From assembly GCA_963696455.1 (NCBI GenBank), contig CAVOKK010000025.1, positions 35,909-59,908 of the forward strand: 24,000 bases of DNA. Direction: 5' to 3'. Below are positions 1,876 to 19,393 of the stretch, one piece after another. The stretch's first letter is position 1. Each line of letters starts with the position of its first letter. Position numbers and translations under genes: made by a program. A model generated the notes under the pieces. It was given only the letters and a program-made list of their open reading frames with translations. It was not told the DNA's origin and did not search any database. The DNA is from an uncultured Actinomycetota bacterium. Lineage in GTDB: Bacteria > Actinomycetota > Actinomycetes > Streptosporangiales > Streptosporangiaceae.

Positions 1876-3837
1876 TCAGCCCTGGTGGTGGCGGTGCTCC
1901 GCGGGCGGTAGGTCGAGGGCGGGGTTGCCGTCGAAGAAGCCGTCTGGCCGCAGCTGGAACCCGACGCTGGTGACCGGCATCACCGGCCAGTCCTCCGGGC
2001 GCACCACGTGGTGAGCGGTGAACGTATGCCACAGCACCAGGTCGGTGTTCTCCAGCGGGCGGTCGGCCGCGGTCCAGGCCGGCAGGCCGTCCCCGCCGGG
2101 ATGCTGGTTGGGGTAATCGCCGGCCGGGAACTGCTGATCGGGATCGTAGGCGGTGACCCACAGGTGCTTGGTGGCGAACTCGGCCCGCCGCATCATGTGG
2201 GTGTCGGGCTGGCAGAAGGGCAGCACGCTGTCCTCGGGCACGAGCTTGTAGGCCACCGGCGCGCCGGTCGCGTTCAGCCGGCCGGGGTTGGTGATCTTCC
2301 AGTAGCGGGCGGCGCGCCCGTCAGCCACCCGCTTCGCCTCGGACTCGCGGCGCAGCGGGGTCTGCCGGACTACCCAGGCGTTGCCATACGGGTTCTCCGG
2401 GCCGGGCGGCAGCGCCACCGAGTCGCACTCACAGACAGTGTTCTGCGGGCCATCGACCAGCATGTCCAGCCGTACGCAGAAAATGTGCTGGTGATGGGGA
2501 CCGTAGACCTGCGGGGCGACCAGGGTGCCGTAGGCCGGTATCTGTCCCTCGGGCAGTGCCCCGTTGGAGATCACGCCGGTCAGCTTGACCTCGTATTCGA
2601 TGGTGCCGTCCTGGTAGAGGTACCAGTAGTAGCCGTACTCGTAGTTCCCGACGGTGGCGATCATCGAAATCACCAGCCGCCGTGAGCGCCGGACCTCGGC
2701 CTTGCCGGTGCGCCAGTCGGTGTGCTTCCACGACATGCCGTGGTCTTCCTCGTGCAGGCAGATCGCGTTCCTGATCAGCTGCGCGTGGCCGTCGTTGTCG
2801 TTGAGGCAGGCGTCGAAGTAGTAGATCTCGCCCAGGCAGTCACAGCCCAGCTCCAGGCTGTTGGCGAGCACGCCGATGCCGTACTCCCCCATGTCGAAGA
2901 CGTTCTTGCGGTAGTGCGTCGGGCTCGGGTCGCCGTAGGGGATGACCATTTCCGCGAGCGAAGCGCGGTAGATGACCGGCCGGAGCGCTCCGTGATCCTG
3001 GTAGCGCACCAGGTGAAGGACCAGCCCCTCGCGGGGGGTAAAGCCAACCTGGAACCGCCATTTCTGCCAGCGCACCTCGTGCCCGTCGACCGTGAAGCTG
3101 GTGCCCTCCGGCTGGGTGATCTCCACTGGCTTCAGATCCTGCCGGGGCCCCGTCGGGGAAGTGCGGGACGTTTCCGGCGTCGCGGATCCCTGCGGCGGTG
3201 TAGTTGCCGCTGCGCGGCGGCAGCGGGAACTACGCCGTGGTCCTCGATATCCACTACTTCCATCCGGTCGAGGTCGAAGCGGACGATCAGGCCCTCCACC
3301 GGGCGGGCGTATCCGTTGTCGTCGGGGTCCCCCTCGCGCACCCAGGTCAGCGGCCGGAGGAACCGGCCCTGCCCGGCCGCGTCCTCGGGGCCGTTGTAGC
3401 CCACCGACCAGGGATCGATCATCACCATGTCGAAGTCGGTGACGCCGCGGCGGCGCATCGCCTCTTGCCAGCGGGCGTCCTTCTTGACCGCCGCCTCGGT
3501 GGCCAGAAACTCCTCGAGCATGACTGCCGGCTGGACACCGGGCACCTCACGCCACAGGCGCACCTCGCCGGCGGTGATCGAGACCACCGCCTCGTAGGTC
3601 CTGCGCTCGGCCCGCTCCCGGAGCACGATATGCGCCTGGCGTTCGAACGCCTCGCCCGGCCGGTAGCCGAGGACCGCGTCCTTGGCTGGTTCCCGCAGCG
3701 TGACGTAGACGAACCGCGCACTCGCAGCCAGGCCGCGGTCCCGCTTGAGGATCGCCGGTGGCGGCCTCGATCTCCTCCGCAGTCAGCGGGTCCAGCGGAT
3801 GCCGCACCGCCACCGTAGGCTGCTCAGCCGCTTTCAT
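1876..3837 (-). pseudogene. Copper/TPQ primary amine oxidase, split over four reading-frame segments
   Basis: The C-terminal 416-aa ORF has the TPQ motif TVGNYEY and Cu-ligand motifs HHQH and WHTFTAHH. The N-terminus (MKAAEQPTVAVRHPLDPLTAEEIEAAT) and the middle domains lie in other frames. Hand translation places shifts near 3751-3763, about 3227 and about 3165-3172. SD GGGAGGGAG precedes the ATG at 3837. Confidence 0.85.
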
Positions 3838-3995
3838 CGTCCGCTCCCTCCCTCGCTCGCTCCCGAAGCCACGGATACTCGCTCACGGCATTGGGCGTCA
3901 TGCCGCCGCCACAGCGAGAGTTGGCGGAAGCGGCCGGTTCCTCCCGGTCCTACCTCAGGCCTATTGCTACGTCAACAGGGCCAATTCAGCCTTCT

Positions 3996-4137
3996 CACGG
4001 TCGCGGGCAGGTCAGGCGTGCGGTGGCCATGCCGGCCGGTCATGTCCTCGTTAGCGACGAGAGCGTTCGCCACGGCCACTTCGACCGCCTGCACGACCGC
4101 CTCGTAGAAGGGATCGATGTGCCCCCCACGGCCCGTC
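3996..4137 (-). repeat. Relic copy of the dmpA 3' end (about 92% identical to 4953-5097)
   Basis: Direct nucleotide alignment by eye gives 7 substitutions and 3 single-base indels over about 133 nt. It encodes HIDPFYEAVVQAVEVAVANALVANEDMTGRHGHRTP. Confidence 0.8.
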
Positions 4138-4156
4138 GGGAGCTGCTCGTCCCGTC

Positions 4157-4239
4157 AGGACGCGGCTGCGCAGCCTCAGATCACGGCGGGAACGAGCAGT
4201 GAGACGTCGCAGACTCCCTCCCGGCCGCGGTCGACGAGG
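4157..4239 (+). repeat. Relic copy of an internal pucR segment (matches 9071-9163)
   Basis: The 62-nt core agatcacggcgggaacgagcagtgagac...ccggccgcggtcgacgagg differs from 9101-9163 by 1 substitution and 1 indel. Weaker similarity extends about 20 nt upstream. Confidence 0.75.
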
Positions 4240-4332
4240 AGCGATGGGGCCTTACCGATTCCGCACGCGAAGCTGGCGGTCGCACGGATGCGGCGGGCGC
4301 CCCCACGGCGCCGCGCGGCCCTAGAGCGACGG

Positions 4333-4563
4333 TCAGATCTGATCGCGCTCGTCTCGCCAGCTGTCCATCACGCTGGTATCCCGGCCGGGCTCGTCGAGTA
4401 TGTCTGCCGGGTCCCACTGGTCGTTGTTGAGGTCGTCGCGCTCCTCGTGCCAGACGCCCATGACGTCATCCTCATCGTCATCGTCGTCCAGCATCCCCGC
4501 CGGGTTCCAGTCGCTCCCGGAGATCTGGTCGCGTTCGTCTCGCCAGTTGTCCATCTCGCTCAT
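4333..4563 (-). CDS. Small hyper-acidic Trp-repeat protein (76 aa), no recognised family
   Basis: GGAGGTGG lies 7 nt upstream of the ATG at 4563; TGA is at 4333-4335. Sequence: MSEMDNWRDERDQISGSDWNPAGMLDDDDDEDDVMGVWHEERDDLNNDQWDPADILDEPGRDTSVMDSWRDERDQI. The track's 195-aa version adds an Arg/Gly/Ala-rich extension that does not look coding. Confidence 0.55.
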   Translation of the reverse strand: MSEMDNWRDERDQISGSDWNPAGMLDDDDDEDDVMGVWHEERDDLNNDQWDPADILDEPGRDTSVMDSWRDERDQI

Positions 4564-4757
4564 CGCTAGCCACCTCCGGATGCGACGGTAAGGGAAAACC
4601 TGGCTCGCTTCACCCCCCGCGCCGCGAATTCGCGCGGGCCCGCGCCCAGCTCCGCACGGGCCGACCCGGACAGCGGCACGCGCGGCGGCGCTTACCGCTT
4701 CCGGCAGGGCGACACCGGCGGCAAGGCAACCGGGAACGGCGAGCTGGGTATGAATCA

Positions 4758-4776
4758 CGAGGCGACGTTCGCCTCG
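4758..4776 (-). terminator. GC-rich hairpin downstream of dmpA (possible terminator)
   Basis: cgaggcga-cgt-tcgcctcg forms an 8-bp perfect stem with a 3-nt loop, 134 nt past the dmpA stop. There is no U-tract. Confidence 0.25.
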
Positions 4777-4909
4777 TTCCCGCACTACACGACCCTGGAC
4801 CACTGCCCCTTGGCGGTCTCCCGCCCCGTCGGCAAACTCCGTCTCCGCGGCACCACCGGCGGTCACCGAAGTCGCCGTGACCGTCAGGTTATGAGCTCTG
4901 CCCCGGTCC

Positions 4910-6129
4910 TCACGACGCACGGGCGGATCTTGCTTTCGCGACGAGCTCGCGCACGCGGTCGCGGGGCAGGGCAGGCGTGCGGTGGCCGTCCCGGCCGGTC
5001 ATGTCCTCGTTAGCGACGAGGGCGTTCGCCACGGCCTCCTCGACCGCCTGCACGACCGCTTCGTAGAACGGGATCGATGTGCCCCCACGGCACGAACTCG
5101 AGCTGGTCAAGGTGCTCCGGTGACCCGTGGAAGGTGGCGATCGACGGCGTGAAGGCTTCCTTGTTCGCGGTCGAGAAGGCCAGGAACAAGTCGCCGGAGA
5201 AGTGGGAGCCGCTCGTCCCGGTCCGGGCGAGGCCGAGCGTCACCCGCCGGGCGAGTGCCTGGCACTGGCCGGGCAGGAGCGGGGCATCGGTCGCGACGAC
5301 TGCGATGACCGAGCCGGCGCCGTGGCGGAGCGCGGAGAAGTGCTCGGCCAGCGGGTTGTCGTCCGCGAGCGCCTCGCCCAGTGGCACCCCGGCGAGCACA
5401 AGCTCGTGCCGGGCGCCGAAGTTGGCCTGCACGAAGGCGCCGACGGTGTAGTCACGTCCGGCGTAGGAGACCAGCCGGGACGCCGTGCCGGAGCCGCCCT
5501 TGAAGGCGTAGCAGTTCATGCCGGTCCCGCCGCCGACCGATCCTTCCTCGATCGGACCGCCGCCTTCGGCACTCTCGAGCGCTTCCACGACGGTTGACTC
5601 GTGCACGTGGTGGCCGTTGATGTCGTTGAGGTAGCCGTCCCAGGTCTCGGCCGAGACGGGCATGAGCCACGCCTCGGTGAGGTCGGGATGGTGCTGATGT
5701 GTCCAGGCGATGATGCCGGCGTGCCCCACCCCGACGGCGTGGGTGTTGGTGATGACGACCGGACCGGAGAAGGTGCCCGACTCCTCGATCCAGGAGGCAC
5801 CGGTCATCTCGCCGTTCCCGTTCTGGTTGTGCAGGCCGGCCGCCACCGGGTCGCCGGGGCACGCCTTCCCGCGCGGGTGGATGGCCGTCACGCCGGTGCG
5901 CACGTCCGGTCCGCTGATCAGCGTCACGTAACCGACTTCGAGGCCGGGCACGTCGGTGATGGCGTTCCAGCGCCCCGGCCTGCCGTCGAACGGGATGCCC
6001 AGGGCACGGGCCCTGGGCTTTCCCGACGGCGTCGACAGGTGCGGGTCGGCGCCGCCTCCGCCACGGCTCCCGCCGGAGCCGGCGGCCGCTCCCGCTCCGC
6101 TCCGCCGGACCGGCCGAGGGCGCGCTCAT
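4910..6129 (-). pseudogene. S58/DmpA-family peptidase (L-aminopeptidase/D-esterase-like), disrupted at both ends
   Basis: The body has GIPFDGRPGRWNAITDVPGLEVGYVTL...GSVGGGTGMNCYAFKGGSGTAS...VVATDAPL. The C-terminal 50 or so residues (FYEAVVQAVEEAVANAL...) are in another frame because of an extra base at 5069. The conserved N-terminus has no ATG/GTG/TTG in frame below the TGA at 6126-6128. Confidence 0.8.
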
Positions 6130-7674
6130 TCGGCCACCCGGACCGGCTCGGCGTTCCTCGTCGATCGGCGCGTCGCGCAGCGTCCAGGCCCGGCCCTTCT
6201 GCGGCAGGATCACGGCCGCCCAGTAGACGAGGCCGATGCCCATCGTGATGAGGGTGACCTCGAGGAGCAGCCTGGTCTGCTGCGTGAAGACATAGCCGAG
6301 GGCAGCCAGCGCCAGCAGCGGCGGGAGCGGCCAGAACGGCATCTTGTAGGCACCGCCGCGCGTCGCGCCGGTCGGCCGGGCCACCAGGGCCGCGATAGCG
6401 ACGAGGGCGTAGTCCGCCACGAGGCTTGCCCCGGTCAGATCGACGAGAGTGTTCAGCGACACGCCCAGGCAGAGGACCGCTCCGAGGACGCCGATGAAGA
6501 TCGTGGCGATCCAGGGGGAACGGAACCTCGGATGCAGGTCCGACAGCCATCTGCTCACTGGCCCCGGGTAGGCGCGGTCACGAGCTGAGCTGTACAGGAT
6601 GCGCCCGTAGCTCAGGATGATGGCGATGACGGCGTTCAGGATGGCGAGGCAGATGCCGATGCTGATGACGTCATACAGCCCGGTATTCCCCGTCGTCTCG
6701 ATGAAGTACTGCAGCGGGATAGCCGACGTCGTGAAGGCGGCGAGGCTCGGCGCTCCGATGATCGTCGCGGCGAAGGGCACGAACTCGGCGAGCACCGTGA
6801 TGACAAGCGACCAGAGAATCGCGCGGGCGATGTTGCGTCGCGGCCCGGCCGTTTCCTCGGAGAAGTTCACGGCGTTGGCGTATCCGTTGTACGAGAAGAC
6901 CGCTACCGCGGTAAGAGCGAGGATGCCCGAGAACGCTACGGGGACCAGGGCACCGTGGGCACCGCCGATCACCGGGTGGGCAAGCGCACTCCAGTTCTTG
7001 GCATGTGAGAACCCGAGCACCGTCAGGATGAGCAGGGCTGCTAGCTCGATGGCGAGGAAGACACCGGTGAGGACGGCGTTGAAACGGATCTTCAGGACGG
7101 CGACGCCGGCCGCGATGATCATGATCACGGCACCGACGTAGCGCGGATCGAGGTTGGCGACGACGGCGAAGTAGGTGCCGGCCCCGAGAGCGATCGTGGC
7201 AGGGATGAAGGCGATGAAGTCGGCGTACAGAGCGAAGGTGATAAAGCTGACCGGCCCGGCGAGCGGCGAGGTCCTGCCCTTGAACGAATGCCCCACCAGC
7301 GCGTAGTCGCCGCCCGCGATCGGGAACGACGCAGCGAGTTCCGCCCAGCAGAAGGCCATGAGCACGCCGACGATGGCAGCGAAGACGAACGACCAGAATG
7401 AGCCACTGCCGGCAGCCACGAGCGCCACCGGGGCGATGATGAACACCGAGGCAGCCGGAGTCACTCCCGACAGCGTGACGAGGACATTGCCGAGCACGCT
7501 GATCGAGCGCGACAGCTCCTGCTTGTAGCGCCCGTGGGCGTGGCCCTCGACGGCGTGCTCAGCGTGCACGACTGCGGCCGCGAAGGCCTTCTCCTGCTCG
7601 CCCGAAAGCCCTTCCGGCGGCTGCACGACGCCCGGTGCCTGGTCGGGGCCGGTCGCCGGCCTGTCGGTGTCCAT
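6126..7674 (-). CDS. APC-superfamily amino acid/polyamine permease; 3' end uncertain
   Basis: About 12 hydrophobic segments, with typical motifs (GVTPAASVFI, ELAASFPIAGGDY, FSYNGYANAVNFSEE). GGGAGAGGAG lies 6 nt before the ATG at 7674; the track start at 7695 is also possible. The frame has no stop until 5452, running out of frame through dmpA, so the real end near 6126-6135 is inferred. Confidence 0.75.
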
Positions 7675-7810
7675 TGCCGTCTCCTCTCCCGTCATCGCCC
7701 CGGCGGCGAGCGAGCGGCCGGCCGCCGTCCTCCTGAACCTCCGCTATCCCGTGACCTGACCCGTCGATCTGCCCTCGATGGTACGGATGCCGTTGTGCGC
7801 CGACAATGCA

Positions 7811-7851
7811 CACTTTGGGTATTTAGCCATTCTCACTTTGCACATAAAGTG
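7811..7851. promoter_or_regulatory. Candidate operator in the divergent permease/pucR intergenic region
   Basis: CACTTTG occurs at 7811-7817 and 7834-7840, 23 bp apart start to start. The second copy is part of the 18-bp palindrome CACTTTGCACATAAAGTG (7834-7851). This is the most AT-rich stretch of the intergenic region. Confidence 0.4.
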
Positions 7852-7857
7852 TGGTCC

Positions 7858-9609
7858 GTGACTCTCTCGCTGCGCGAGATCCTCGAGCTCGAGCCGCTCC
7901 GCAGGGCACGCCCGCAGGTGCTCGCCGGGCGGGACCATCTCGACGAGTTCGTCAGGTGGGTCCACGTGACAGAGCTCCCCGACATCGCCTACCTGCTGCG
8001 GGGCGGCGAGCTTCTCCTCACGACCGGGATGGCGATCGCCGGAAGCTCGCACGTCCAGGAGAAGTACATTGCCGATCTGGCGACCGCCGGAGTGGCCGGT
8101 GTCGTCGTCGAGCTTGGCCGCAACTTCCGCGAACTGCCCGACGCCATGGTCAGGGCAGCCGAATCCGCCGGGCTGCCGCTCGTGGCGCTCGAGCGCGAGG
8201 CCCGGTTCGTCGAGGTCACGGAGGCGGTGCACAGGGAGATCATCAACCGGCAGTACGAGCTCTTGCGCCGTGCCGAGCAGGTGAGCCGGGAACTCACCGA
8301 GCTCATCCTCTCCGGTGCCGAGCTGGGCCGCATCGTCGGCCGGCTCGCCGAGATCTTCGGCGACCACGTCGTACTCGAGGACGACGCCCACCAGGTTGTC
8401 GAGATCGCAGGCGTCAGCGAGGGCCTCGGCGACGTGCTCGCCGGGTGGGACGAGCACGCCCGCAGCGGGCACGACGAGATCGAGCGCGGCGCCGTGCACC
8501 GCTGCGACGGCGCCCCGCGGTGCCTGTGGGTAACGCTGTGGCTCCGGCACCAGCCGTGGGGCCGTCTCCACGTTCTCGAGACGCGCAGCCGGCTGGACGA
8601 CATCATCGAGCTGCTCGTCGACCGGGCGGGCGCTGCCCTCAGCCTCACGCTCCTGGCCGAGAAGGACGCCGCCCATCTGGCCGATCGCGCCCGAAGCGCC
8701 CTGGTGAGCGAGGCGGTCTCGGGTCGTTCCGGGACGGCTACGGACTTCCTGCGCCGGGCGCGCAGCCTCGGCGCCGACCTTGCCGGAGGCCGCCTCGTGC
8801 TGCTTGCCGTCGAGACGACGTGGCCGACGCCGACGCCGACGCCGCCCGGCGCGGCCGCAGGCCGCGTCGCCGGCCGGGCGGCGGCGAGCGAGGAGGCGCG
8901 CCGGCTCTCCGTCCGTGCCGCCGTTGCCGCCGACATCCGCCAGGCAGCGACCGAGCGCGCGTGCGGGGCCCTGGTCGGCCTGGTGGGCGACTACATCCTT
9001 GCCGTTCTCGCCGTGCCGGGCGGCCGGTCCTTCCCCGGCGTGCTCGAAGAGGTCGTCGAGCAGGCGGCCGTCAGGGCGACGCTGCGCAACGAGCCGGTCG
9101 AGATCACGGCGGGAACGAGCAGTGAGACATCGGCAGACTCCCTCCCGGCCGCGGTCGACGAGGCAGTTGCCGCTCTCGGCGTCGGGCGCAGGAGCAGCGA
9201 CGGCCGCCGCATCCATCACTTCGCCGAACTCGGCACCTACCAGCTGCTGGTAGCACTCGCCCAGGGACCGGAGCTGGCGCAGTTCGTCGACTCCGAGCTG
9301 CGGGCTGTGCTCGACCACGACGCCCGGGCTCGCACGAGACTGCTGCCGACGCTGACCGCCTACCTCGAGCACGCCGGGCGCAAGGCGGACACGATCCGCG
9401 CCCTGGGCGTCCAGCGCCGCACTCTTTACGCCCGGCTCGAACGGCTCGAGGCCATCCTCGGGCGAAGCCTGGAGCTGCAGGACACCCGGACTCGCCTCAC
9501 TCTCGCGCTGCAGGGCCTGGCTCTACTGCAGGATCGCCAGCCGCTCCTGTTCACCACGGCGCGCGGGGCCGCGGCCATGGCGCCGGCGGTCTCAAGCGCG
9601 AACACGTGA
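7858..9609 (+). CDS. PucR-family transcriptional regulator
   Basis: The N-terminus (V)TLSLREILELEPL...LLTTGMA is typical of the PucR N-terminal domain. The C-terminal HTH reads LLPTLTAYLEHAGRKADTIRALGVQRRTLYARLERLEAILG. GTG at 7858 is preferred, with 7849 as an alternative; the track's 7534 start adds non-coding-looking sequence. Confidence 0.85.
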   Translation: MTLSLREILELEPLRRARPQVLAGRDHLDEFVRWVHVTELPDIAYLLRGGELLLTTGMAIAGSSHVQEKYIADLATAGVAGVVVELGRNFRELPDAMVRAAESAGLPLVALEREARFVEVTEAVHREIINRQYELLRRAEQVSRELTELILSGAELGRIVGRLAEIFGDHVVLEDDAHQVVEIAGVSEGLGDVLAGWDEHARSGHDEIERGAVHRCDGAPRCLWVTLWLRHQPWGRLHVLETRSRLDDIIELLVDRAGAALSLTLLAEKDAAHLADRARSALVSEAVSGRSGTATDFLRRARSLGADLAGGRLVLLAVETTWPTPTPTPPGAAAGRVAGRAAASEEARRLSVRAAVAADIRQAATERACGALVGLVGDYILAVLAVPGGRSFPGVLEEVVEQAAVRATLRNEPVEITAGTSSETSADSLPAAVDEAVAALGVGRRSSDGRRIHHFAELGTYQLLVALAQGPELAQFVDSELRAVLDHDARARTRLLPTLTAYLEHAGRKADTIRALGVQRRTLYARLERLEAILGRSLELQDTRTRLTLALQGLALLQDRQPLLFTTARGAAAMAPAVSSANT

Positions 9610-9673
9610 GCAGGTCGACCTGACCGGCCCGTCCTCGCCTGAGACGCCGCTCTTGCCTGGTGACCGACCGCCA

Positions 9674-9692
9674 TGTGTCACTTTGTGACACA
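9674..9692. promoter_or_regulatory. 19-bp perfect palindrome (operator candidate) with a -10-like box for the TA operon
   Basis: TGTGTCAC-TTT-GTGACACA. TACGAT at 9699-9704 lies 6 nt before the ATG at 9711, consistent with a leaderless transcript. Confidence 0.5.
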
Positions 9693-9710
9693 CGGTGGTA
9701 CGATCACAAC

Positions 9711-10124
9711 ATGGCCGATCATTACACCCTGCGGCTGGCGCCGGGAATCAAGCAGCGGCTCGCCGACTGGGCCCGGCGGTCCGGCATGCCCGAGCGCAGC
9801 CTTGCCCAGCGATACGTCGATGAGGGCCTCCGGCATGACGCTCATCCGCTGATCCAGTTCCTGGACGGCCCCAGCGGCCGGCGCGCCAGCCTGGCTGGCC
9901 GCGGCCTGGACGTCTGGGAGGTCATCGCCACGATCCGCGACAACCACGGGTCGATCGCCCAGGCCGCCGACTACCTGCAGATACCCGCCGGGCTGGTCGA
10001 AGCGTCCGTTGCCTACTACGGCGAGTACAAAGGCGAGATCGACCAGGAGATTGAGCTCAACGAGGCGGAGTACGCGCGCGGGATCGCGGCCGCCGCAGCC
10101 GGCGAGCGGGCGCTGCGCGAGTGA
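9711..10124 (+). CDS. Antitoxin-like protein: N-terminal RHH-like segment plus DUF433-like domain
   Basis: MADHYTLRLAPGIKQRLADWARRSG looks RHH-like. GRRASLAGRGLDVWEVIATIRDNHGSIAQAADYLQIPAGLVEASVAYY fits the DUF433 pattern. The stop overlaps the next gene's start (GTGA). Confidence 0.7.
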   Translation: MADHYTLRLAPGIKQRLADWARRSGMPERSLAQRYVDEGLRHDAHPLIQFLDGPSGRRASLAGRGLDVWEVIATIRDNHGSIAQAADYLQIPAGLVEASVAYYGEYKGEIDQEIELNEAEYARGIAAAAAGERALRE

Positions 10125-10489
10125 AAGCCCTGCTGGACGAGCAGCTATCGCCGCAGATCGCCGCGCTCCTGCGCCAGGCCGGCCTCGACGTGGAAGCGGT
10201 CGCCGAACGGCCTGACCTGGTCGGGCGCAGCGACATGGTCATCTTCGAGGTCGCCTGCCGCGAGGACCGGGCCGTGATCACGAACAACATCAAGGATTTC
10301 CGGCCGCTGGCCGCTCAGTGGCTCGCCCAGGGACGCGTCCACGGCGGGCTGATCCTGCTCCCCTCCGCACGCACGCGCACCCGCGCCGCCACCACGATGC
10401 TGGCCGACCGGATCGCCAGCATCCTGCAGGACAACCCCGATGGCCTGACCAGCAGCGAACGCTGGATCAGCCCGCTGCCCAGCAGCTGA
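10121..10489 (+). CDS. PIN-like toxin candidate (DUF5615 / Mut7-C-like)
   Basis: MKALLDEQLSPQIAALLRQAGLDVEAV...DMVIFEVACREDRAVITNNIKDF...GGLILL matches the DUF5615 pattern. There is a 4-nt GTGA overlap with the upstream gene. Confidence 0.7.
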   Translation: MKALLDEQLSPQIAALLRQAGLDVEAVAERPDLVGRSDMVIFEVACREDRAVITNNIKDFRPLAAQWLAQGRVHGGLILLPSARTRTRAATTMLADRIASILQDNPDGLTSSERWISPLPSS

Positions 10490-10578
10490 ACCCTGCTCGG
10501 TCACCACCTGCGGGAAGCCGGTTATGCCCAGGCCGGAATGGACATCGATACCTCGGGCCGCAGATCCCCGGCGAGGGT

Positions 10579-11367
10579 CTACTGCGGGTTCCCGTGCAGG
10601 CCGCCGGCGGCCGGTCCCGGCGCGGGATCGGCCCAGTGCGGTTCGCGCTTCTCAGCGAAGGCCGCGAGACCCTCACGCATGTCCGGGCCGGCTTGAATCC
10701 GTTCCACTGCACGCGCGGTGGCCTCCCATCCCACGGCTTCCGCAGCAGTCCATTGCTCCTCCAGTGCCTGCAGGGTGGCGCGCACAGACGCAGGCGATGA
10801 GGCACATACCTCCTCGGCAAGTTCGAGCGCGACGGGGACCGCGTGGCCCGGTTCGGCGAGCCGGTTCACGAAGCCGATCTGGTAGGCGCGCTGCGCGTCA
10901 AGGCGGGCTCCGGTGATGAGCAGTTCCCTGCACAGGTTCACCGGCAGGCACCGCATGGCCCGCAGCAGCGCACCGGAGCTGGCGACGAGGCCCCGCATGG
11001 TCTCGGGCAGCCCGAACTCGGCGGTGCGGGACGCGACGACCAGGTCGCAGGACATCGCGATCTCGAACCCGCCCCCGAGAGCGAGCCCTTCCACGGCCGC
11101 GATGAGGGGCTTCGTGTGCTTCCGCCGGATGATGCCGTACTCCCCGCCCCGCTGCGTCGGGCCGCCCGCGCCGGACACGATGTCCGTTCCGGCGCAGAAG
11201 ACCTCGGCAGTGCCGGTCAGGATGCCAGCCCAGTACCGGGGATCGTCCTGGAAGTCGCTGAGCGCTTCGTCGAGTTCCCGGGTGGTCACGCCGTCGATGG
11301 CGTTGCGCTTGGCCGGTCGCTCGATGCGGATCACGGCGACGCGCCCGCGGGTCTCTTTCCGGATCAT
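10579..11367 (-). CDS. Enoyl-CoA hydratase/isomerase (crotonase) family protein
   Basis: VAVIRIERPAKRNAI, FCAGTDI and PLIAAVEGLALGGGFEIAMSCDLVVAS...FGLPE are the crotonase oxyanion-hole motifs. Confidence 0.85.
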   Translation of the reverse strand: MIRKETRGRVAVIRIERPAKRNAIDGVTTRELDEALSDFQDDPRYWAGILTGTAEVFCAGTDIVSGAGGPTQRGGEYGIIRRKHTKPLIAAVEGLALGGGFEIAMSCDLVVASRTAEFGLPETMRGLVASSGALLRAMRCLPVNLCRELLITGARLDAQRAYQIGFVNRLAEPGHAVPVALELAEEVCASSPASVRATLQALEEQWTAAEAVGWEATARAVERIQAGPDMREGLAAFAEKREPHWADPAPGPAAGGLHGNPQ

Positions 11368-11403
11368 GGCTTCACTCCGCTCAGAAGAAATGCGCCGTTA
11401 CCC

Positions 11404-12381
11404 TCATCGAGGGTTCAGTACGTACTTGCCTGTTACCCCGCGTTCGCCGAAGCTCCTGAGAAGCCGCCCGGCCTCGCCGAGGGGCACGGATTGCGGCGCA
11501 GGCGGATGTATCTCGCCGGCGCTGATCCGCGCGAGGACGTCGGCCAGCAGATCGCGACTAGCGCCGGGGCCCCCGCCGCCGCGCGACCAGTCCCCCCAGT
11601 CCACGCCGATGATGCTGCGGTTGCGCAGCAGGACGACGTTCATGGGCAGCCGCGGGATCTCCCCCGAGGCGAAGCCGAGGACGCAGAGCCGTCCGCCGGC
11701 GTTGAGCGCGCGCAGAGCGGACTCACTCGGCGCGCCGCCGACCGGATCGATGACGACATCCGCGCCGCCATCGGTCACAGACCGGATGGCGTCCTTGAGA
11801 TTGTGGTAATCGATGGCGACATCGGCTCCCGCGGCCAGCGCGGCGGCCCTCTTCTGCTCGGTGGACGCAACGGCCACGACCCGGGCTCCGAGGCCGTGAG
11901 CGACATCGACAGCGGCGAGCCCGATGCTCCCGCCGGCACCCAGAACGACGACCTGCTCGCCGGGTTCGATCGTGACCCGCCTGGTGACGGCAAAGACCAT
12001 TGTCGAGTAGTTCTCAGCCGCGCTGGCGGCCACCGTCAGGTCAACACCATCAGGGACGAGGACTACTCCGGCCGCAGGGCGCACGGCGTGCGACGTGTAG
12101 CAGCCGAAGTCCATGTCGATGCACGCAACCGGGACACCGATCGCAAGGTGGTCGACGTTGGCCCCGCACTCGACGACCTGCCCGGAGAGTGCCGAGCCGG
12201 GCGTGAACGGGAGCTCGGGCCGGATCTGGTACTTCCCTTCGACGATCAGGCCGTCGACGAAGGACGTCCCCGCGGCCGCCACCTCGATCAGAACCTCGTC
12301 CGGTCCCGCCCCTGGAGTGGGCTCGTCGACCAATTGGAGCATGTCGGGACTGCCGAAGCCGGTGCACAAGATGCGCTGCAT
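11404..12381 (-). CDS. NADPH:quinone oxidoreductase-like MDR (zinc-type alcohol dehydrogenase superfamily)
   Basis: AGGAG lies 9 nt upstream of the ATG at 12381. The sequence has MQRILCTGFGSPDMLQLVDEPTP...VLIEVAAAG and the Rossmann motif VLGAGGSIGLAAV. The track's 459-aa ORF over-extends the 5' end. Confidence 0.85.
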   Translation of the reverse strand: MQRILCTGFGSPDMLQLVDEPTPGAGPDEVLIEVAAAGTSFVDGLIVEGKYQIRPELPFTPGSALSGQVVECGANVDHLAIGVPVACIDMDFGCYTSHAVRPAAGVVLVPDGVDLTVAASAAENYSTMVFAVTRRVTIEPGEQVVVLGAGGSIGLAAVDVAHGLGARVVAVASTEQKRAAALAAGADVAIDYHNLKDAIRSVTDGGADVVIDPVGGAPSESALRALNAGGRLCVLGFASGEIPRLPMNVVLLRNRSIIGVDWGDWSRGGGGPGASRDLLADVLARISAGEIHPPAPQSVPLGEAGRLLRSFGERGVTGKYVLNPR

Positions 12382-12427
12382 CGATGGATCTCCTGTCTGC
12401 GCGGAGCACTGCTGCTGCGCGCCGAAC

Positions 12428-12446
12428 GATAGCCTTATCTCTATGA
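12428..12446. promoter_or_regulatory. LysR-type box GATAGccttATCTCTATGA (ATAG-N8-CTAT dyad)
   Basis: It lies in the divergent qor/lysR intergenic region. It is 15/19 identical to a second copy at 13342-13360. Confidence 0.5.
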
Positions 12447-12477
12447 TCATGGTCGTCGTGGCGCGAGAAGGCTTCCG

Positions 12478-13360
12478 ATGGCGATCACCCTGACTCAGAT
12501 CCGCGCCTTCCTGGCGGTGAAGGCAACCGGCAGCATGCGCCTGGCGGCTGAGCAGCTGCTGATCAGCCAGCCGTCTGTGTCGGCCGCGGTCTCGGCGCTC
12601 GCCGATGAGCTGATGACGCCGCTGGTCGAACGCCATGGCCGCGGCGTACGGCTCACCGCGGCCGGGGAGGCGTTCGTCCCCTACGCAGCCCAGGTGCTCG
12701 GGCTGCTCGAGCAGGGCACATTCGCTGCCAGGGAGGCAGCCGCACCCGGAGAGCTCGAAGATCCGCCTGATCACCGTCAACACTGCCGGCGAGTACCTGG
12801 TTCCGCCGCTGATCCAGGCCTACCGGCTGCTGCATCCGGGCATCAGCGTCCTGCTGGAGGTCGCTAACCGCGCCACGCTGCTCGAGCGGCTGCAGTCCCG
12901 GCGCGCTGATATCGGCATCGGCGGCCGGCCGCCCGGCGGCAGGCTGTCTGGCTACCCGTTCCTGTCCAACGAGCTTGTCGTCGTCGGCCGGGAGATTCCC
13001 GCCGACCTCGGCGAGGCCTCGTGGCTGCTGCGTGAGGAGGGGTCCGGCACCCGGCTGGCCACCGAGCGCCTGCTCGCCGACCTCGACCTCACCGCTCCGG
13101 AGGTGCAGACGCTGGGGTCAAACGGCGCGATCAAGAATGGCCTGGCGGTCGGCCTCGGCATCACCCTGATCTCGCGGTTCGCCGTAGCCCGTGAGCTGCG
13201 GGAGGGGCGCCTGGTCGAGATCGGCGTGCCCGGCACGCCACTGACGCGCCCCTGGCACGTGCTGTTCCCCCGATCGGGACCGGAACGTCCGGCCGTCCGC
13301 GCGTTCGGCGAGTTCCTGCGGTCGGACCAGGCTCGTCAATTGATAGAAGAATCTCTATGA
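12478..13360 (+). pseudogene. LysR-family regulator (CbbR-like by position), frameshifted between the HTH and effector domains
   Basis: The HTH part (MAITLTQIRAFLAVKATGSMRLAAEQLLISQPSVSAAVSALADEL) is in one frame. The substrate-binding part (SSKIRLITVNTAGEYLVPPLIQAYRLLHPGISVLLEV...) is in the next frame. The junction is near 12750-12765. Confidence 0.8.
13342..13360. promoter_or_regulatory. Second LysR-type box GATAGaagaATCTCTATGA, at the head of the AT-rich cbbL promoter region
   Basis: It overlaps the lysR stop codon. It is followed by TTGATAAATCTGG and TTTTTTAAAT, a roughly 60-bp AT-rich stretch in a 70% GC context. Confidence 0.5.
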
Positions 13361-13394
13361 CACATTGATAAATCTGGCCTTTTTTAAATGACTT

Positions 13395-14825
13395 ATGCCG
13401 CCTAGGCTTCTGAGCATGTTCGAAGCAGGAGTACGCGAGTACCGCGAGATCTACTGGACGCCCGGATACCAGCCCAGGCAGACTGACGTCCTCGCGGCGT
13501 TCCGGCTCATCCCGCAGCCGGACGTCGCACCGCAGGAGGCCGCCGCGGCCGTGGCCGCTGAATCCTCAACCGCTACCTGGACCACCGTCTGGACCGATCA
13601 CCTGACGACACTCGAGCGCTACAAGGCACGGGTCTACGACCTCGAGCCGGTGCCGGGCCGCGACAACCAGTACCTCGCGTACATCGCCTACCCGATGGAG
13701 CTGTTCGAAGAGGGCTCGGTGACGAGCATGATGGCCTCGATCACCGGGAACGTCTTCGGTTTCAAGGCGATCCGGGCGCTACGGCTGGAAGACCTGCGGA
13801 TCCCCGTCGCGTACGTCAAGACGTTCCAGGGTCCGCCGAACGGGATCCAGGTCGAGCGCGACAGGCTGAATAAGTACGGCCGGCCGCTGCTCGGCGCCAC
13901 GCTGAAGCCCAAGCTCGGGCTGTCGGCCAGGAACTACGGCCGTGCCTGCTTCGAGCTGCTGGCCGGCGGCCTCGACTTCACCAAGGACGACGAGAACATC
14001 ACCTCCCAGCCGTTCATGCGCTGGGGCGACCGGTTTGAGTTCGTGATGGAGGCCGTTCGCAAGGCCGAGCTGGAGACCGGGGAACGCAAGGGCCATTACC
14101 TCAACGTCACCGCGCCGGACTGCGAGCAGATGCTGGAGCGGGCCGAGGCCGCCAGGCAGCTCGGCGCGCCGATCATCATGCACGACTATCTGGTCGGCGG
14201 ATTCTCGGCGCACCAGACGCTGTCCCACTGGTGCCGCCGGAACGGCATGCTGCTGCACGTGCACCGCGCCCTGCACGCCGTGGTCGACCGGCAGAAGGAC
14301 CACGGCATCCACTTCCGGGTCCTCGCCAAGTGGCTGCGGCTGGCCGGCGGTGACCACCTGCACACCGGGACGGTCGTCGGCAAGCTTGAAGGCGACCGGG
14401 CGACGACGCTGGGCGTGGTCGACCTGCTCCGCGAGGACTTCGTGGCCGCGGACCGCAGCCGTGGCATCTACTTCGATCAGGAGTGGGCGGCGCTGCCAGC
14501 GGTCATGCCCGCCGCGTCCGGCGGGATCCATGTCTGGCACATGCCCGCGCTGGTCGACATCTTCGGTGATGACTCGGTCCTGCAATTCGGCGGCGGCTCC
14601 GCCGGGCACCCGATGGGCAGCCGGGCCGGCGCCACGGCCAACAGGGTCGCGCTCGAGGCCTGCGTCGCGGCTCGCAACGAGGGCCGCGACCTGGCCGCCG
14701 AGGGACCGCAGATCCTCGAGCAGGCGGCTCAGCGCTCTGCCGAGCTTTCCGCGGCGCTGGACACCTGGCGGGAGATCAAGTTCGATTTCGAGTCCGTCGA
14801 TACCCCGGATGTGATGCCGGCATGA
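13395..14825 (+). CDS. cbbL: RuBisCO large subunit, form I (red-like lineage)
   Basis: Catalytic motifs are intact: [80 protein letters not shown] and [12 protein letters not shown]. The red-type signature [11 protein letters not shown] is present. An alternative start is at 13416. Confidence 0.95.
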
Positions 14826-15133
14826 AGCTGGAAACCTTCTCCTACCTGCCCGAGCTCACCCCCGGCCAGCTCGAGCGGCAGATCAGCGCGATCGTCGGCC
14901 GGGACCTCATGGCCGGCATCGAGTTCAGCACCGCACCGGACCCGCGCGATCACTACTGGACGATGTGGAAGCTTCCGCTGTTCGACGGCGCCGATACCGC
15001 GGCCGTCCTGGCCGAGCTTGAGGCCTGCCGGCAGGCTCACCCGGACGCCTATATCAAGCTCAACGGCTATGACGCGGTCAGGCAGGGCCAGGTCGTGTCG
15101 TTCGTCGTGTACCGCCCGGAACGGGGTGCGTGA
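14822..15133 (+). CDS. cbbS: RuBisCO small subunit (103 aa)
   Basis: ATGA overlap with cbbL. The sequence has [18 protein letters not shown]...[11 protein letters not shown]...[23 protein letters not shown]...SFVVYRP. Confidence 0.9.
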
Positions 15134-16125
15134 TGCCCCGGCCGATCATTCTGAGCATCGCCGGTGACTCCGGCTCCGGCAAGACAACCATTACCCGCGG
15201 CATCGTCCGGGTGCTCGGCGAGGACAGGGTCACCCACTTCTGCGCCGACGACTACCATCGCTTTGACCGGCGCCAGCGCGCTGAGCGTGGCATTACCCCG
15301 CTCGACCCGGAATGCAACTACCTCGACGTGCTGACACAGGACGTCCGGCACCTGCGCAACAACGACGCCATACTCAAGCCCACCTACCAGCACGCCGACG
15401 GCACCTTCGGGCCGCCTGTCTACCTCACGCCAGCCCGCTTCGTCATCGCGGAAGGGCTGCTGATTAACCACACCCCTGAGCTGCGCGAGATGTTCGACGT
15501 CCGTGTCTACCTGAACCCGCCCGAGGAGATCAGGCGGCGCTGGAAGGTGGCCCGCGACTGCTCCCGCCGCGGCTACTCCACCGATCAGGTCCTCCGCGAG
15601 CTCGACCGGCGCGAGCACGACTCCGAGCAGTTCGTCCGCCCGCAGCGGCACTACGCGGACATGGTCGTGTCCTTCATGCCGGGTTCCTCGCAGGACCCCG
15701 GGCAGCTGGACGCCCACCTCTTCCTCCGCGACTCGCTGCCCTACCCCGACCTGTCCGGAGTCGCCGGAACCGGCGGGGAAGCAGCGGAGGACGGCCTGAC
15801 GCTCATCGAGCGACCAGGCGAGCAGGAGCTGCGCATTCCCGGCACGATCTCGGCCGGCCGCGCCGTCGAGCTGGACGAGCTGATCTGGGACCGGATGCAT
15901 TTCGCGAGCCACCTGCGCCAGCAGCGACTCGGCGAGTTCACCACCGGCTCCGACCTGCACCGCTCCGACGCGCTCGCCCTCGCGCAGCTCCTGCTGCTGT
16001 ACGAGCTGGTGACCGCCCGTGCTGTCATAGCACTCGGCGGCGAGAGCGCCCGGTCCAGGGCGCAGCACTCGACCGAGCCGCCCCCCGTCCCGGAGGCGGT
16101 GGTCCCGGCCGGGCCCAGCCGGTAG
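15133..16125 (+). CDS. prk: Phosphoribulokinase (PRK/uridine kinase family)
   Basis: The ATG overlaps the cbbS TGA by 1 nt (GTG at 15130 is also possible). P-loop SIAGDSGSGKTT, DDYHRFDR, ITPLDPECNYLDV, LKPTYQH, VIAEGL and WKVARD are present. Confidence 0.85.
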   Translation: MPRPIILSIAGDSGSGKTTITRGIVRVLGEDRVTHFCADDYHRFDRRQRAERGITPLDPECNYLDVLTQDVRHLRNNDAILKPTYQHADGTFGPPVYLTPARFVIAEGLLINHTPELREMFDVRVYLNPPEEIRRRWKVARDCSRRGYSTDQVLRELDRREHDSEQFVRPQRHYADMVVSFMPGSSQDPGQLDAHLFLRDSLPYPDLSGVAGTGGEAAEDGLTLIERPGEQELRIPGTISAGRAVELDELIWDRMHFASHLRQQRLGEFTTGSDLHRSDALALAQLLLLYELVTARAVIALGGESARSRAQHSTEPPPVPEAVVPAGPSR

Positions 16126-17949: not shown

Positions 17950-18450
17950 ATGGCAGACGGATACGTGTCGGTCTCCCGGCACATCGAGGTCCCCGCGGAA
18001 CGGCTGTTCGCGCTGCTCGCCGACCCCGCCAACCATCAGCTGATCGACGGCTCGGGCATGGTCCGCGAACCGGTCACGGCGGTCACGCTGGCCGGAACCG
18101 GCGACACGTTCCGGATGAACATGCATCACGACGAGTGGGGCGACTACCAGATGCACAACGAGGTTGTCGACTACCAGGCCGGCCAGCTCCTGGTGTGGCA
18201 GCCCGCCCGGGTGGACGTCTCCGGCCCCGGCCAGCAGGAAGTCATCCGCTCCGCCTTCTACCGGTGGGGATACGAGCTCGTCCCCGACGGCCCCGGCGCC
18301 ACCACGGTCACCGAGACCTTCGACTGCACCCGCTCACCGGACGACCTGCGCGACGCCGTCCGCGAAGGCGAAGGCTGGCGGGACTCCATGACCGCGTCGC
18401 TGGTCAAGCTGGAGCAGCTGGCAAAGGCCGCGGGCCCGGCGTCCCGGTAG
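17950..18450 (+). CDS. SRPBCC (START/polyketide cyclase-like) family protein
   Basis: AAGGA lies about 9 nt upstream of the ATG at 17950. The sequence has VSRHIEVPAERLFALLADPANHQLIDGS...TETFD...L, with length and pattern typical of the family. Confidence 0.7.
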   Translation: MADGYVSVSRHIEVPAERLFALLADPANHQLIDGSGMVREPVTAVTLAGTGDTFRMNMHHDEWGDYQMHNEVVDYQAGQLLVWQPARVDVSGPGQQEVIRSAFYRWGYELVPDGPGATTVTETFDCTRSPDDLRDAVREGEGWRDSMTASLVKLEQLAKAAGPASR

Positions 18451-18455
18451 CGGCC

Positions 18456-19393
18456 TCAGGGCGTCTCGCCGCGCACAGCGCCAGCGATCGCTCGCAGCTT
18501 GCCTGCTAGCCCGGCCACGTTCTCCGTGCGAGGCAACCCGACGAGGAAGTCGGTGACCCCGGCCGACCGGAGCCCGGCGGCGCGCGCGGCCGTTGCGTCC
18601 TGGTCGATCGTCCCGTCGCCCGAAGAGGACCGGCTCGAACGCCGTCGTGACCAGGACCGATTCCGGATCGCGCTGCCGTTCCGTCATGGCCGCCCGCATC
18701 CGGGCAATGCCGCCGGTAACATCGGCGGCGTCATCGCCCCACGGGATCCAGCCGGCGCCGAAGCGGGCCAGGCGGTCCATGGCACCGCGGTTGACCGTGC
18801 CGCTCACCCAGATCGGGACACCGCCGGCCTGGCTCGGCTTGGGCATCTGGTGAATCCGGTCGAGCCGGATCTCCGCGTCTGCGTAATCCACCCGATCGCT
18901 GGTCCACAGGGCCTGGCAGATGGCGAGATTGCGGTCCAGCTGGCGCCCACGCCGGGCGAAGTCGCGTCCGGTGGCCTCATATTCCTCGCGCTGCCAGCCG
19001 ACGCCGACGCCGAGCTCCAGCCGCCCGCCGGACAGCACGTCGATGGTCGCCGCGGTCTTGGCCAGCAGGACAGGACTGCGCAGCGCCGCCAGCAGAATGC
19101 GGGTCGCGAACCGCACGTGAGATGGTCACCGCGCTGAGATAGGCGATGGTCGCGAGCGGGTCCAGCCAGGAACCGTCGGGTCCCGTCGGCTGCTGTCCGC
19201 CCCGGATCCCGCCGAGTTCCGGGCGAGCGTAGTTCTCCAGGCGCTCGCCGAGAACGACATGATCGGACAGGATGACCCGGTCGATGCCAGCCTCGTCCGC
19301 GGCCTTGGTCCATCCGATCATCCTGGCCAGATCCGGCACCGGCTCCGCGTCGAAGTTGAGGAGGTACAGCGAGACGCTTACCGGTTCGGTCAT
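18456..19393 (-). pseudogene. LLM-class (luciferase-like, F420-type) oxidoreductase, two frameshifts
   Basis: The N-terminus MTEPVSVSLYLLNF...GIDRVILSDHVV...LATIAYLSAVT and the core VRFATRILLAALRSPVLLAKTAATIDVLSGGRLELGVGVGW are in different frames. A sensible C-terminus (SGDGTIDQDATAARAAGLRSAGVTDFLVGLPRTENVAGLAGKLRAIAGAVRGETP*) is in yet another frame. Shifts lie near 19118-19125 and 18620-18630. Confidence 0.8.

Follow-up and report, generated by a model that had tools for sequence, protein, structure and literature searches.

A hyper-acidic orphan reading frame with internal repeats, inserted between catabolic genes of an uncultured Actinomycetota bacterium

The 24,000-nt stretch of DNA that we analysed (hereafter, the window), which comes from an uncultured Actinomycetota bacterium, carries on its minus strand a 76-codon open reading frame (ORF) for a hyper-acidic product, located between chromosomal catabolic genes. 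Judging from sequence, we give about an even chance to the reading that this ORF is a real, expressed and lineage-specific orphan gene, either young or fast-evolving. It looks like a genuine coding sequence in three respects, namely its codon periodicity, its host-like codon choice and its Shine-Dalgarno (SD) site.

The ORF runs from the ATG at 4563-4561 to the TGA at 4335-4333, and its product, MSEMDNWRDERDQISGSDWNPAGMLDDDDDEDDVMGVWHEERDDLNNDQWDPADILDEPGRDTSVMDSWRDERDQI, contains 21 Asp, 7 Glu, 6 Arg, 5 Trp and no Lys. Asp and Glu make up 28 of the 76 residues (37%) and the net charge is about −22; on recounting, these values agree with those of a preliminary description of the same DNA. The ORF and the elements within and around it are the following.

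4333-4563, minus strand: hyper-acidic ORF of 76 codons (ORF list, codon-position GC and periodicity test)
4570-4577, minus strand: Shine-Dalgarno-like GGAGGTGG, 6 nt before the ATG (sequence and 7-mer count)
4462-4554, minus strand: repeat unit A, codons 4-34, MDNWRDERDQISGSDWNPAGMLDDDDDEDDV (repeat and self-alignment analysis)
4369-4461, minus strand: repeat unit B, codons 35-65, MGVWHEERDDLNNDQWDPADILDEPGRDTSV (repeat and self-alignment analysis)
4336-4368, minus strand: truncated repeat unit C, codons 66-76, MDSWRDERDQI (repeat analysis)
4521-4560, no strand assigned: 5' copy of a 40-nt direct repeat, 90% identical to 4335-4374 (repeat search)
4335-4374, no strand assigned: 3' copy of the 40-nt direct repeat (repeat search)
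4623-4644, no strand assigned: abutting 12-nt palindromes CGCGAATTCGCG (4623-4634) and CGCGGGCCCGCG (4633-4644), statistically ordinary (palindrome count)

The length of an ORF is uninformative in this region, where 45 ORFs of at least 30 aa overlap a 4-kb stretch at 69% GC. The GC content at codon positions 1, 2 and 3 of the acidic ORF is 0.69, 0.35 and 0.86, respectively (chi-square p = 3e-10). The periodicity persists when the codons for D, E, M and W are excluded (0.66, 0.55 and 0.89; p = 0.004), and it is thus not a mere by-product of GAC runs. The synonymous choice is close to that of the host genes of the window, with GAC at 76% versus 83% and GAG at 86% versus 83%, while AAC and CAG are used at 100% each, which is also host-like. 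The codon-position GC pattern argues for a coding history and against a recent birth from non-coding DNA.

The strong SD sequence noticed earlier before the ATG is present at 4577-4570. Counting both strands (48,000 strand positions), the window has only three instances of its 7-mer GGAGGTG, and because it is so rare the chance of finding it correctly placed before the ATG of this ORF is estimated at about 3e-4. No promoter, terminator, Rfam family or unusual RNA structure was found around the ORF. The perfect palindrome CGCGAATTCGCG that had been pointed out upstream is indeed there, but it is not special: the window holds 22 perfect 12-nt palindromes, from which this one is indistinguishable, and we rejected it as an operator. 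Together with the palindrome that it abuts, it sits between the ORF module and a plus-strand relic described below.

The ORF is built from a 31-aa (93-nt) unit that is present in 2.35 copies. Units A and B have 11 of 31 residues and 53 of 93 nucleotides in common (57% nt identity), and the repeat keeps the W, P, ERD and hydrophobic positions. The BLOSUM62 self-score at an offset of 31 is 97, compared with 15 ± 7.6 and a maximum of 53 for 5000 composition-preserving shuffles, and for units A and B alone the score is 69, where the shuffles reach at most 50. A degenerate unit between the two ends of the product had been proposed before; in our analysis a weaker middle copy lies at 4428-4467 (65% identical) and sets the 93-nt (31-aa) period. 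The motif MD(N/S)WRDERDQI, described as both starting and ending the product, is present at both ends, although the N-terminal copy begins at residue 4 and not at residue 1. The 35-nt direct repeats behind it (4335-4369 and 4521-4555) do differ at three positions, two synonymous and one Asn/Ser. The repeat extends to 40 nt (36 of 40 identical for 4521-4560 and 4335-4374), the fourth difference being Glu/Val, and the terminal repeat homology stops exactly at the stop codon. The synonymous changes, which had been taken as a hint of selection on the peptide, are real, but they suggest selection only faintly: between A and C there are two synonymous versus one or two non-synonymous changes (two with the 40-nt repeat), which is not significant (Fisher p = 0.05-0.10), and between A and B dN is 0.62 and dS 0.71, a dN/dS of about 0.87. 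The gene would have grown by serial internal duplication, in which a 93-nt unit was doubled to 186 nt and then diverged; a later partial duplication of the 186-nt block would have given the near-identical (90%) ends of the ORF, with the end of the duplication coinciding with the stop codon.

Profile searches, which the preliminary description had proposed, gave no family match for the product: there was none in Pfam (E ≤ 1), NCBIfam or PADLOC, and in PHROGs the best hit was a family of unknown function at E = 0.43. No PDB sequence matched at E ≤ 10. A word-indexed search of 5.8 billion proteins returned no candidate homologue, and no homologue came from tblastn-confirmed scans of GTDB species genomes, JGI metagenomes and IMG/VR viral contigs. 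Plasmids and phages gave no match, either by tblastn with the protein or by blastn with the 663-nt spacer DNA that contains the ORF. Exact look-ups found no match, and in the literature we found nothing relevant to its motif strings. On these searches of family libraries and large sequence collections, the ORF is an orphan, apparently restricted to its lineage, as had been suggested when its family was not recognised.

A full phmmer search of 1.84 billion representative proteins gave a single match, P0001 (E = 5e-14), a 2640-aa hypothetical protein in which ELNxKNAADTGGDWNPAGLLE recurs about 20 times and which is encoded on an 89-kb virus-like metagenomic contig. The two proteins share G-x-D-W-N/D-P-A-G-(L/M)-L-(E/D) as a conserved repeat core, but nothing aligns beyond this motif, and host, GC content and architecture are unrelated. 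When the comparison was re-run, it split into 16 stretches of 1.4-11.7 bits each, with i-Evalues from 4e4 to 7e7, none of them reportable; even the best stretch (11.7 bits, i-Evalue 4e4) does not place the ORF among the GDWNPAGLLE-type repeats of P0001. We therefore rejected P0001 as a homologue, since the E-value of 5e-14 sums one 9-residue motif repeated 16 times. We read the match as coincidental, or at most as convergence on a short motif, because the score sums repeats and chance alone would produce about one such 9-mer in 2.4e11 residues (an estimate).

Structure prediction, also proposed earlier, was run with AlphaFold2 (AF2) from the single sequence and gave a low-confidence model (pLDDT 57.6, pTM 0.20) that has no compact fold and looks disordered. 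It places helices only at residues 4-14, 34-46, 52-56 and 64-75, of which 4-14, 34-46 and 64-75 lie at the MDxWRDERDQI motifs. We infer that the product would be an intrinsically disordered polyanion with three short amphipathic Trp helices and two DW(N/D)PAxxLD turns.

The genomic setting of the ORF was obtained by comparison with the closest relative, L001, the genome of an uncultured Actinomycetota bacterium assembled from a metagenome (MAG), which is colinear with the window at 95% nt identity (window 9533-4903 aligns with L001 6527-11114, and window 3856-1855 with L001 11143-13141). On the minus strand of the window the neighbours are a copper amine oxidase gene (start 3837), the acidic ORF, a Peptidase_S58/DmpA gene (stop 4910-4912) and an amino-acid permease gene, with a divergent PucR-family regulator gene on the plus strand; the ORF is oriented like DmpA and the amine oxidase. 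When compared with L001, the window carries an insertion between the DmpA-family peptidase gene and the copper amine oxidase gene, and the ORF lies within it. In L001 the permease, DmpA and amine oxidase genes form an overlapping operon, with 51 nt between the end of DmpA (11107) and the start of the amine oxidase (11159), and the ORF is absent from the syntenic position. Streptosporangiaceae-like MAGs conserve the PucR-permease-DmpA cassette, with an overlap of the permease stop and the DmpA start, and the genes downstream of DmpA vary: relatives that are 86-89% identical keep the cassette and have other genes there. Among 86 loci, only L001 has the adjacency of DmpA and amine oxidase, and an exact-pattern metagenome scan found no further junction of this kind. 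The ORF was also considered as a RiPP precursor, a multi-core peptide beside a peptidase and an oxidase; we rejected this, since L001 has the adjacent enzymes without the ORF and no modifying enzyme is specific to the insert.

The insertion is a mosaic. In the direction of DmpA it consists of an orphan spacer (spacer X), a PucR scrap, a 17-nt DmpA scrap, a second DmpA 3' end and an unmatched 84 nt. Its parts, and the DmpA 3' end that borders it, are the following.

3857-4902, no strand assigned: 1046-nt insertion relative to L001, which has about 28 nt here (genome alignment)
4240-4902, no strand assigned: orphan spacer X, 663 nt, with no match in the rest of the window, 86 related loci, plasmids or phages
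4640-4894, plus strand: coding-like relic, with GC3 of about 0.9 and one frameshift
4152-4239, plus strand: PucR-family regulator scrap, 87.5% identical to 9068-9163 in the same orientation, with three indels
4138-4154, minus strand: DmpA body scrap of 17 nt, 16 of 17 (94%) identical to 5204-5220
3941-4135, minus strand: decayed second DmpA 3' end, frameshifted and with a 38-nt replaced patch (repeat search and alignment)
4900-5094, minus strand: gene-attached DmpA 3' end, orthologous to L001 through the stop and ggaccgg, with a 1-nt insertion near 5072

Spacer X is itself composite and carries the acidic ORF and, on the other strand, the frameshifted relic. We rejected spacer X or the ORF as a diverged or overprinted piece of the cassette or of any other part of the window, the best sensitive blastn match having E = 0.017, and tblastx gave only high-GC noise. 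The relic at 4640-4894 (85 aa) has neither a Pfam match nor a homologue. It lacks a start codon over about 150 nt upstream, and its end lies 15 nt from the DmpA stop. It is what remains of a different gene, oriented divergently to the acidic ORF, and the two palindromes separate them.

The core of the second DmpA tail (3998-4135) is 92% identical to 4956-5094 and 87% identical to L001. The tail ends in tgaggtaggaccgg, and the same tgagg..aggaccgg follows the real stop. The last 84 nt before the amine oxidase (3940 to 3857) have no match and lie within an unmatched stretch at 3857-3997. The direct repeats that had been described as bracketing a 0.8-kb segment are found at 4005-4126 and 4964-5086 (93% identical, spacing 959-960 nt, about 0.8 kb enclosed), and each of them is a copy of the end of the Peptidase_S58/DmpA gene on its 3' side. 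The scraps follow the order and orientation of the cassette (PucR 9163 to 9068, DmpA 5220 to 5204, DmpA 5094 to 4900), and they are diverged and interrupted by deletions. The simplest reading is that they are what is left of a second PucR-permease-DmpA copy, whittled down by deletions, with the acidic ORF in the spacer between the two copies.

The operon around the ORF is damaged. Compared with L001, in which the permease, DmpA and amine oxidase are intact (522, 387 and 653 aa, respectively), the window has seven frameshifting indels in these three genes, at the 3' end of the permease (6152, 6123 and 6056), in DmpA (5072) and in the amine oxidase (3753, 3228 and 3152). The cbbL-cbbS-prk genes of the same window (13395-16125) are intact, with overlapping stops and starts. 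At the indel density of the operon about four indels would be expected in them, and the probability of none is estimated at about 0.01. The damage is therefore concentrated in the permease-DmpA-amine oxidase operon, which points to either real pseudogenisation or local strain heterogeneity in the assembly. The frameshifted operon around the ORF may accordingly be a region in decay, or its sequence may be locally unreliable.

A rival reading is that the ORF itself is a non-functional relic, a luckily open leftover of a longer repeat gene between the cassette copies, unexpressed and unselected. We regard this as somewhat unlikely. In its favour, the ORF lies amid gene scraps and beside a frameshifted relic, three neighbouring genes are frameshifted, units A and B give a dN/dS close to 1 and no promoter was found. 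The terminal repeat homology ends at the stop codon as if a rearrangement junction had fixed the end of the ORF, and a coding-like GC3 would outlast inactivation for long. On the other hand, an 8-nt SD sequence is well placed at the ATG, and no parent gene is detectable among the 1.84 billion representative proteins. In addition, the 231-nt ORF has no indel, whereas the adjacent gene scraps have about five small ones in about 235 nt, that is, about one per 50 nt. Had the ORF, the scraps and the relic arisen together and evolved neutrally, an ORF without any indel would be expected with a probability of about 0.01.

Another reading is that the arrangement is an assembly artefact, in which a metagenome-derived contig strings together two strain haplotypes or contains a chimeric join; the tandem DmpA tails, and perhaps the placement of the ORF, would then exist in no single genome. 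In its favour, all of the nearest relatives are MAGs, the tails of DmpA differ by 8%, which is similar to the divergence between strains, and several of the 1-nt insertions among the seven frameshifting indels resemble doubled polymorphic sites (the window has CCCGTTC where L001 has CCGTTC and both the remnant and L002 have CCCTTC). However, the concatenation of haplotypes would not yield collinear scraps with internal deletions, nor 663 nt without an allele elsewhere, and with cbbL-cbbS-prk intact the indels are concentrated in one operon and not evenly spread. Even with a false join, the ORF would be real DNA with a coding signature. We consider this explanation improbable.

Still less probable, in our view, is that a small mobile or integrative element entered at the 3' end of DmpA with the ORF as its cargo, which would code for a protein of the anti-restriction, DNA-mimic or anti-defence type. 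In favour of this, the product is an orphan of small size and high acidity, the sister genome L001 lacks the segment, and direct repeats of a gene 3' end bracket it, as after a Campbell-type integration. Like elements flanked by attL and attR, the segment of about 0.8 kb that is absent in the sister lies between repeats of about 195 nt of the gene end. However, there is no integrase, transposase, terminal inverted repeat, tRNA or att core. No recombinase or integrase was found in the 1046-nt insert, where only the 76-aa ORF and the 85-aa relic are coding-like and neither has a Pfam match, and the repeats are imperfect (92-93% identical). The gene-attached tail matches L001 as its orthologue and the displaced tail is the divergent one, which is the reverse of what integration predicts. 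The insert holds scraps of local genes in cassette order, so a decayed segmental duplication fits better than an integrative element. The GC content across the insert (0.63-0.73) is genome-like and the codon use is host-like, and there is no match in phages, plasmids, viral contigs, PHROGs, PADLOC or Pfam ArdA/Ocr. T7 Ocr and ArdA are also small and have a very high density of Asp and Glu. In contrast to them, the ORF product has no sequence or profile similarity to these proteins, has no predicted rigid fold that would show its charges like B-DNA, and is host-like in composition and not encoded on a phage, plasmid or conjugative element. The link to DNA mimics and to anti-restriction or decoy proteins that the preliminary description had drawn is thus unsupported, though not refuted: there is neither a profile match, nor a mobile-element context, nor a phage or plasmid match, nor a compact fold in the low-confidence AF2 model.

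It is likewise very unlikely that the ORF is the first member of a new family of repeat mini-proteins, hyper-acidic and studded with Trp, that act as polyanionic decoys; for this, DW(N/D)PAG(L/M)L(D/E) would have to be a true short linear motif, independently reused in the giant viral repeat protein, the product would have to sequester a basic DNA- or RNA-binding partner (a nuclease, nucleoid protein or regulator), and the gene would have been caught soon after its assembly by internal duplication, plugged into an existing operon.

Returning to the reading as a real, lineage-specific orphan gene, the ORF best fits a known kind, judged by its features, namely a taxonomically restricted small gene with internal repeats. 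Like orphan small genes that have grown by tandem duplication, it has no homologue, is short and predicted to be disordered, and contains a duplicated unit. It is absent at the syntenic site of a genome that is 95% identical, and it lies in a rearranged intergenic region where it could borrow the transcription of an operon. It differs from de novo orphan genes in its strong codon-position GC, which points to a coding history. As a real gene, the ORF would occupy the spacer between two copies of the PucR-permease-DmpA cassette, one intact-looking and one whittled down to a remnant, just upstream of the copper amine oxidase gene. Because it has the orientation of the operon and a strong SD sequence but no recognisable promoter, its most likely route of expression would be read-through transcription starting at the permease-DmpA promoter, with translation initiated at the ORF's own SD site. 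If the product acts at all, it would most plausibly bind basic, nucleic-acid-binding or cation-rich surfaces in a stoichiometric manner, as an electrostatic decoy or buffer.

If expressed, the ORF would serve as a clean case, in bacteria, of a gene that is very young and lineage-specific, with a construction that can still be read (a 93-nt unit, its doubling to 186 nt and a partial third copy) and with insertion into a pre-existing operon as its route to expression, the sister genome representing the "before" state. The small proteome of uncultured soil Actinomycetota, which is largely unexplored, would also gain a disordered polyanionic mini-protein. At present the integrity of the region is doubtful and the orphan is a single, unreplicated case, whose value lies mainly in being a candidate for an expression test. 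A tryptic peptide that is diagnostic for the product is DQISGSDWNPAGMLDDDDDEDDVMGVWHEER.

Three successive genes of the window, within 1876-6152, carry frameshifting indels relative to the closest related genome (L001, 95% identical). They encode the permease (with the indels at its 3' end), DmpA and the copper amine oxidase, and L001 has an intact version of each. Every single-base difference from L001 in these genes is an insertion on the window side, and several of these insertions look like doubled SNP sites. In DmpA, a 50-nt insertion at 6123 has in addition removed the start codon. The luciferase-like monooxygenase ORF at 18334-19116 aligns to no more than positions 68-229 of its Pfam profile (314 positions in all), with the match beginning at the first residue of the ORF, which indicates that this ORF is probably truncated or frameshifted too.

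The remnant DmpA tail has lost its final codons to a 38-nt patch of lower GC content (agaaggctgaattggccctgttgacgtagcaataggcc; 3958-3997, minus strand). Within this patch, some 120 nt upstream of where the amine oxidase starts, is a TTGACG hexamer, so that the patch might provide a promoter -35 element after the insertion; a consensus scan called no promoter.

The PucR-family regulator gene of L001 has an internal tandem duplication of about 398 nt (region 6128-6925), in which 6128-6525 and 6527-6925 each align to window 9136-9533. The junction of the duplication lies within the PucR segment 9068-9163, the same segment that is present as a scrap in the insertion of the window, and this coincidence points to a possible hot spot of local recombination around GACTCCCTCCCGGCCGCGGTCGACGAGG.

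Where synteny with L001 stops, at about 9650, the window has a pair of genes with a 4-nt overlap (9660-10489), which looks like a putative toxin-antitoxin module. The first protein has 154 aa and the N-terminus MTDRHVSLCDTRWYD, and the second (122 aa) resembles a PIN/DUF5615-type toxin.

In the region 12635-16125 the window also contains an intact form I RuBisCO operon, which implies autotrophic potential in a Streptosporangiaceae relative. Its genes include the following, whose stops overlap the next starts:

13395-14825, cbbL
14822-15133, cbbS
15130-16125, phosphoribulokinase

The LysR-type regulator ORF upstream of the operon is without the N-terminal HTH domain.

P0001, the phmmer match to the acidic ORF that was rejected as homology, is a 2640-aa hypothetical protein encoded at 6001-13923 of an 89-kb virus-like metagenomic contig (L087). 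Pfam gives no match for it. Its modules of about 130 aa are separated by copies of ELN(Q/K)KNAADTGGDWNPAGLLE, about 20 in number and evenly spaced, and MORN-like repeats are found at the C-terminus, a layout that resembles a polyprotein or linker-repeat architecture.
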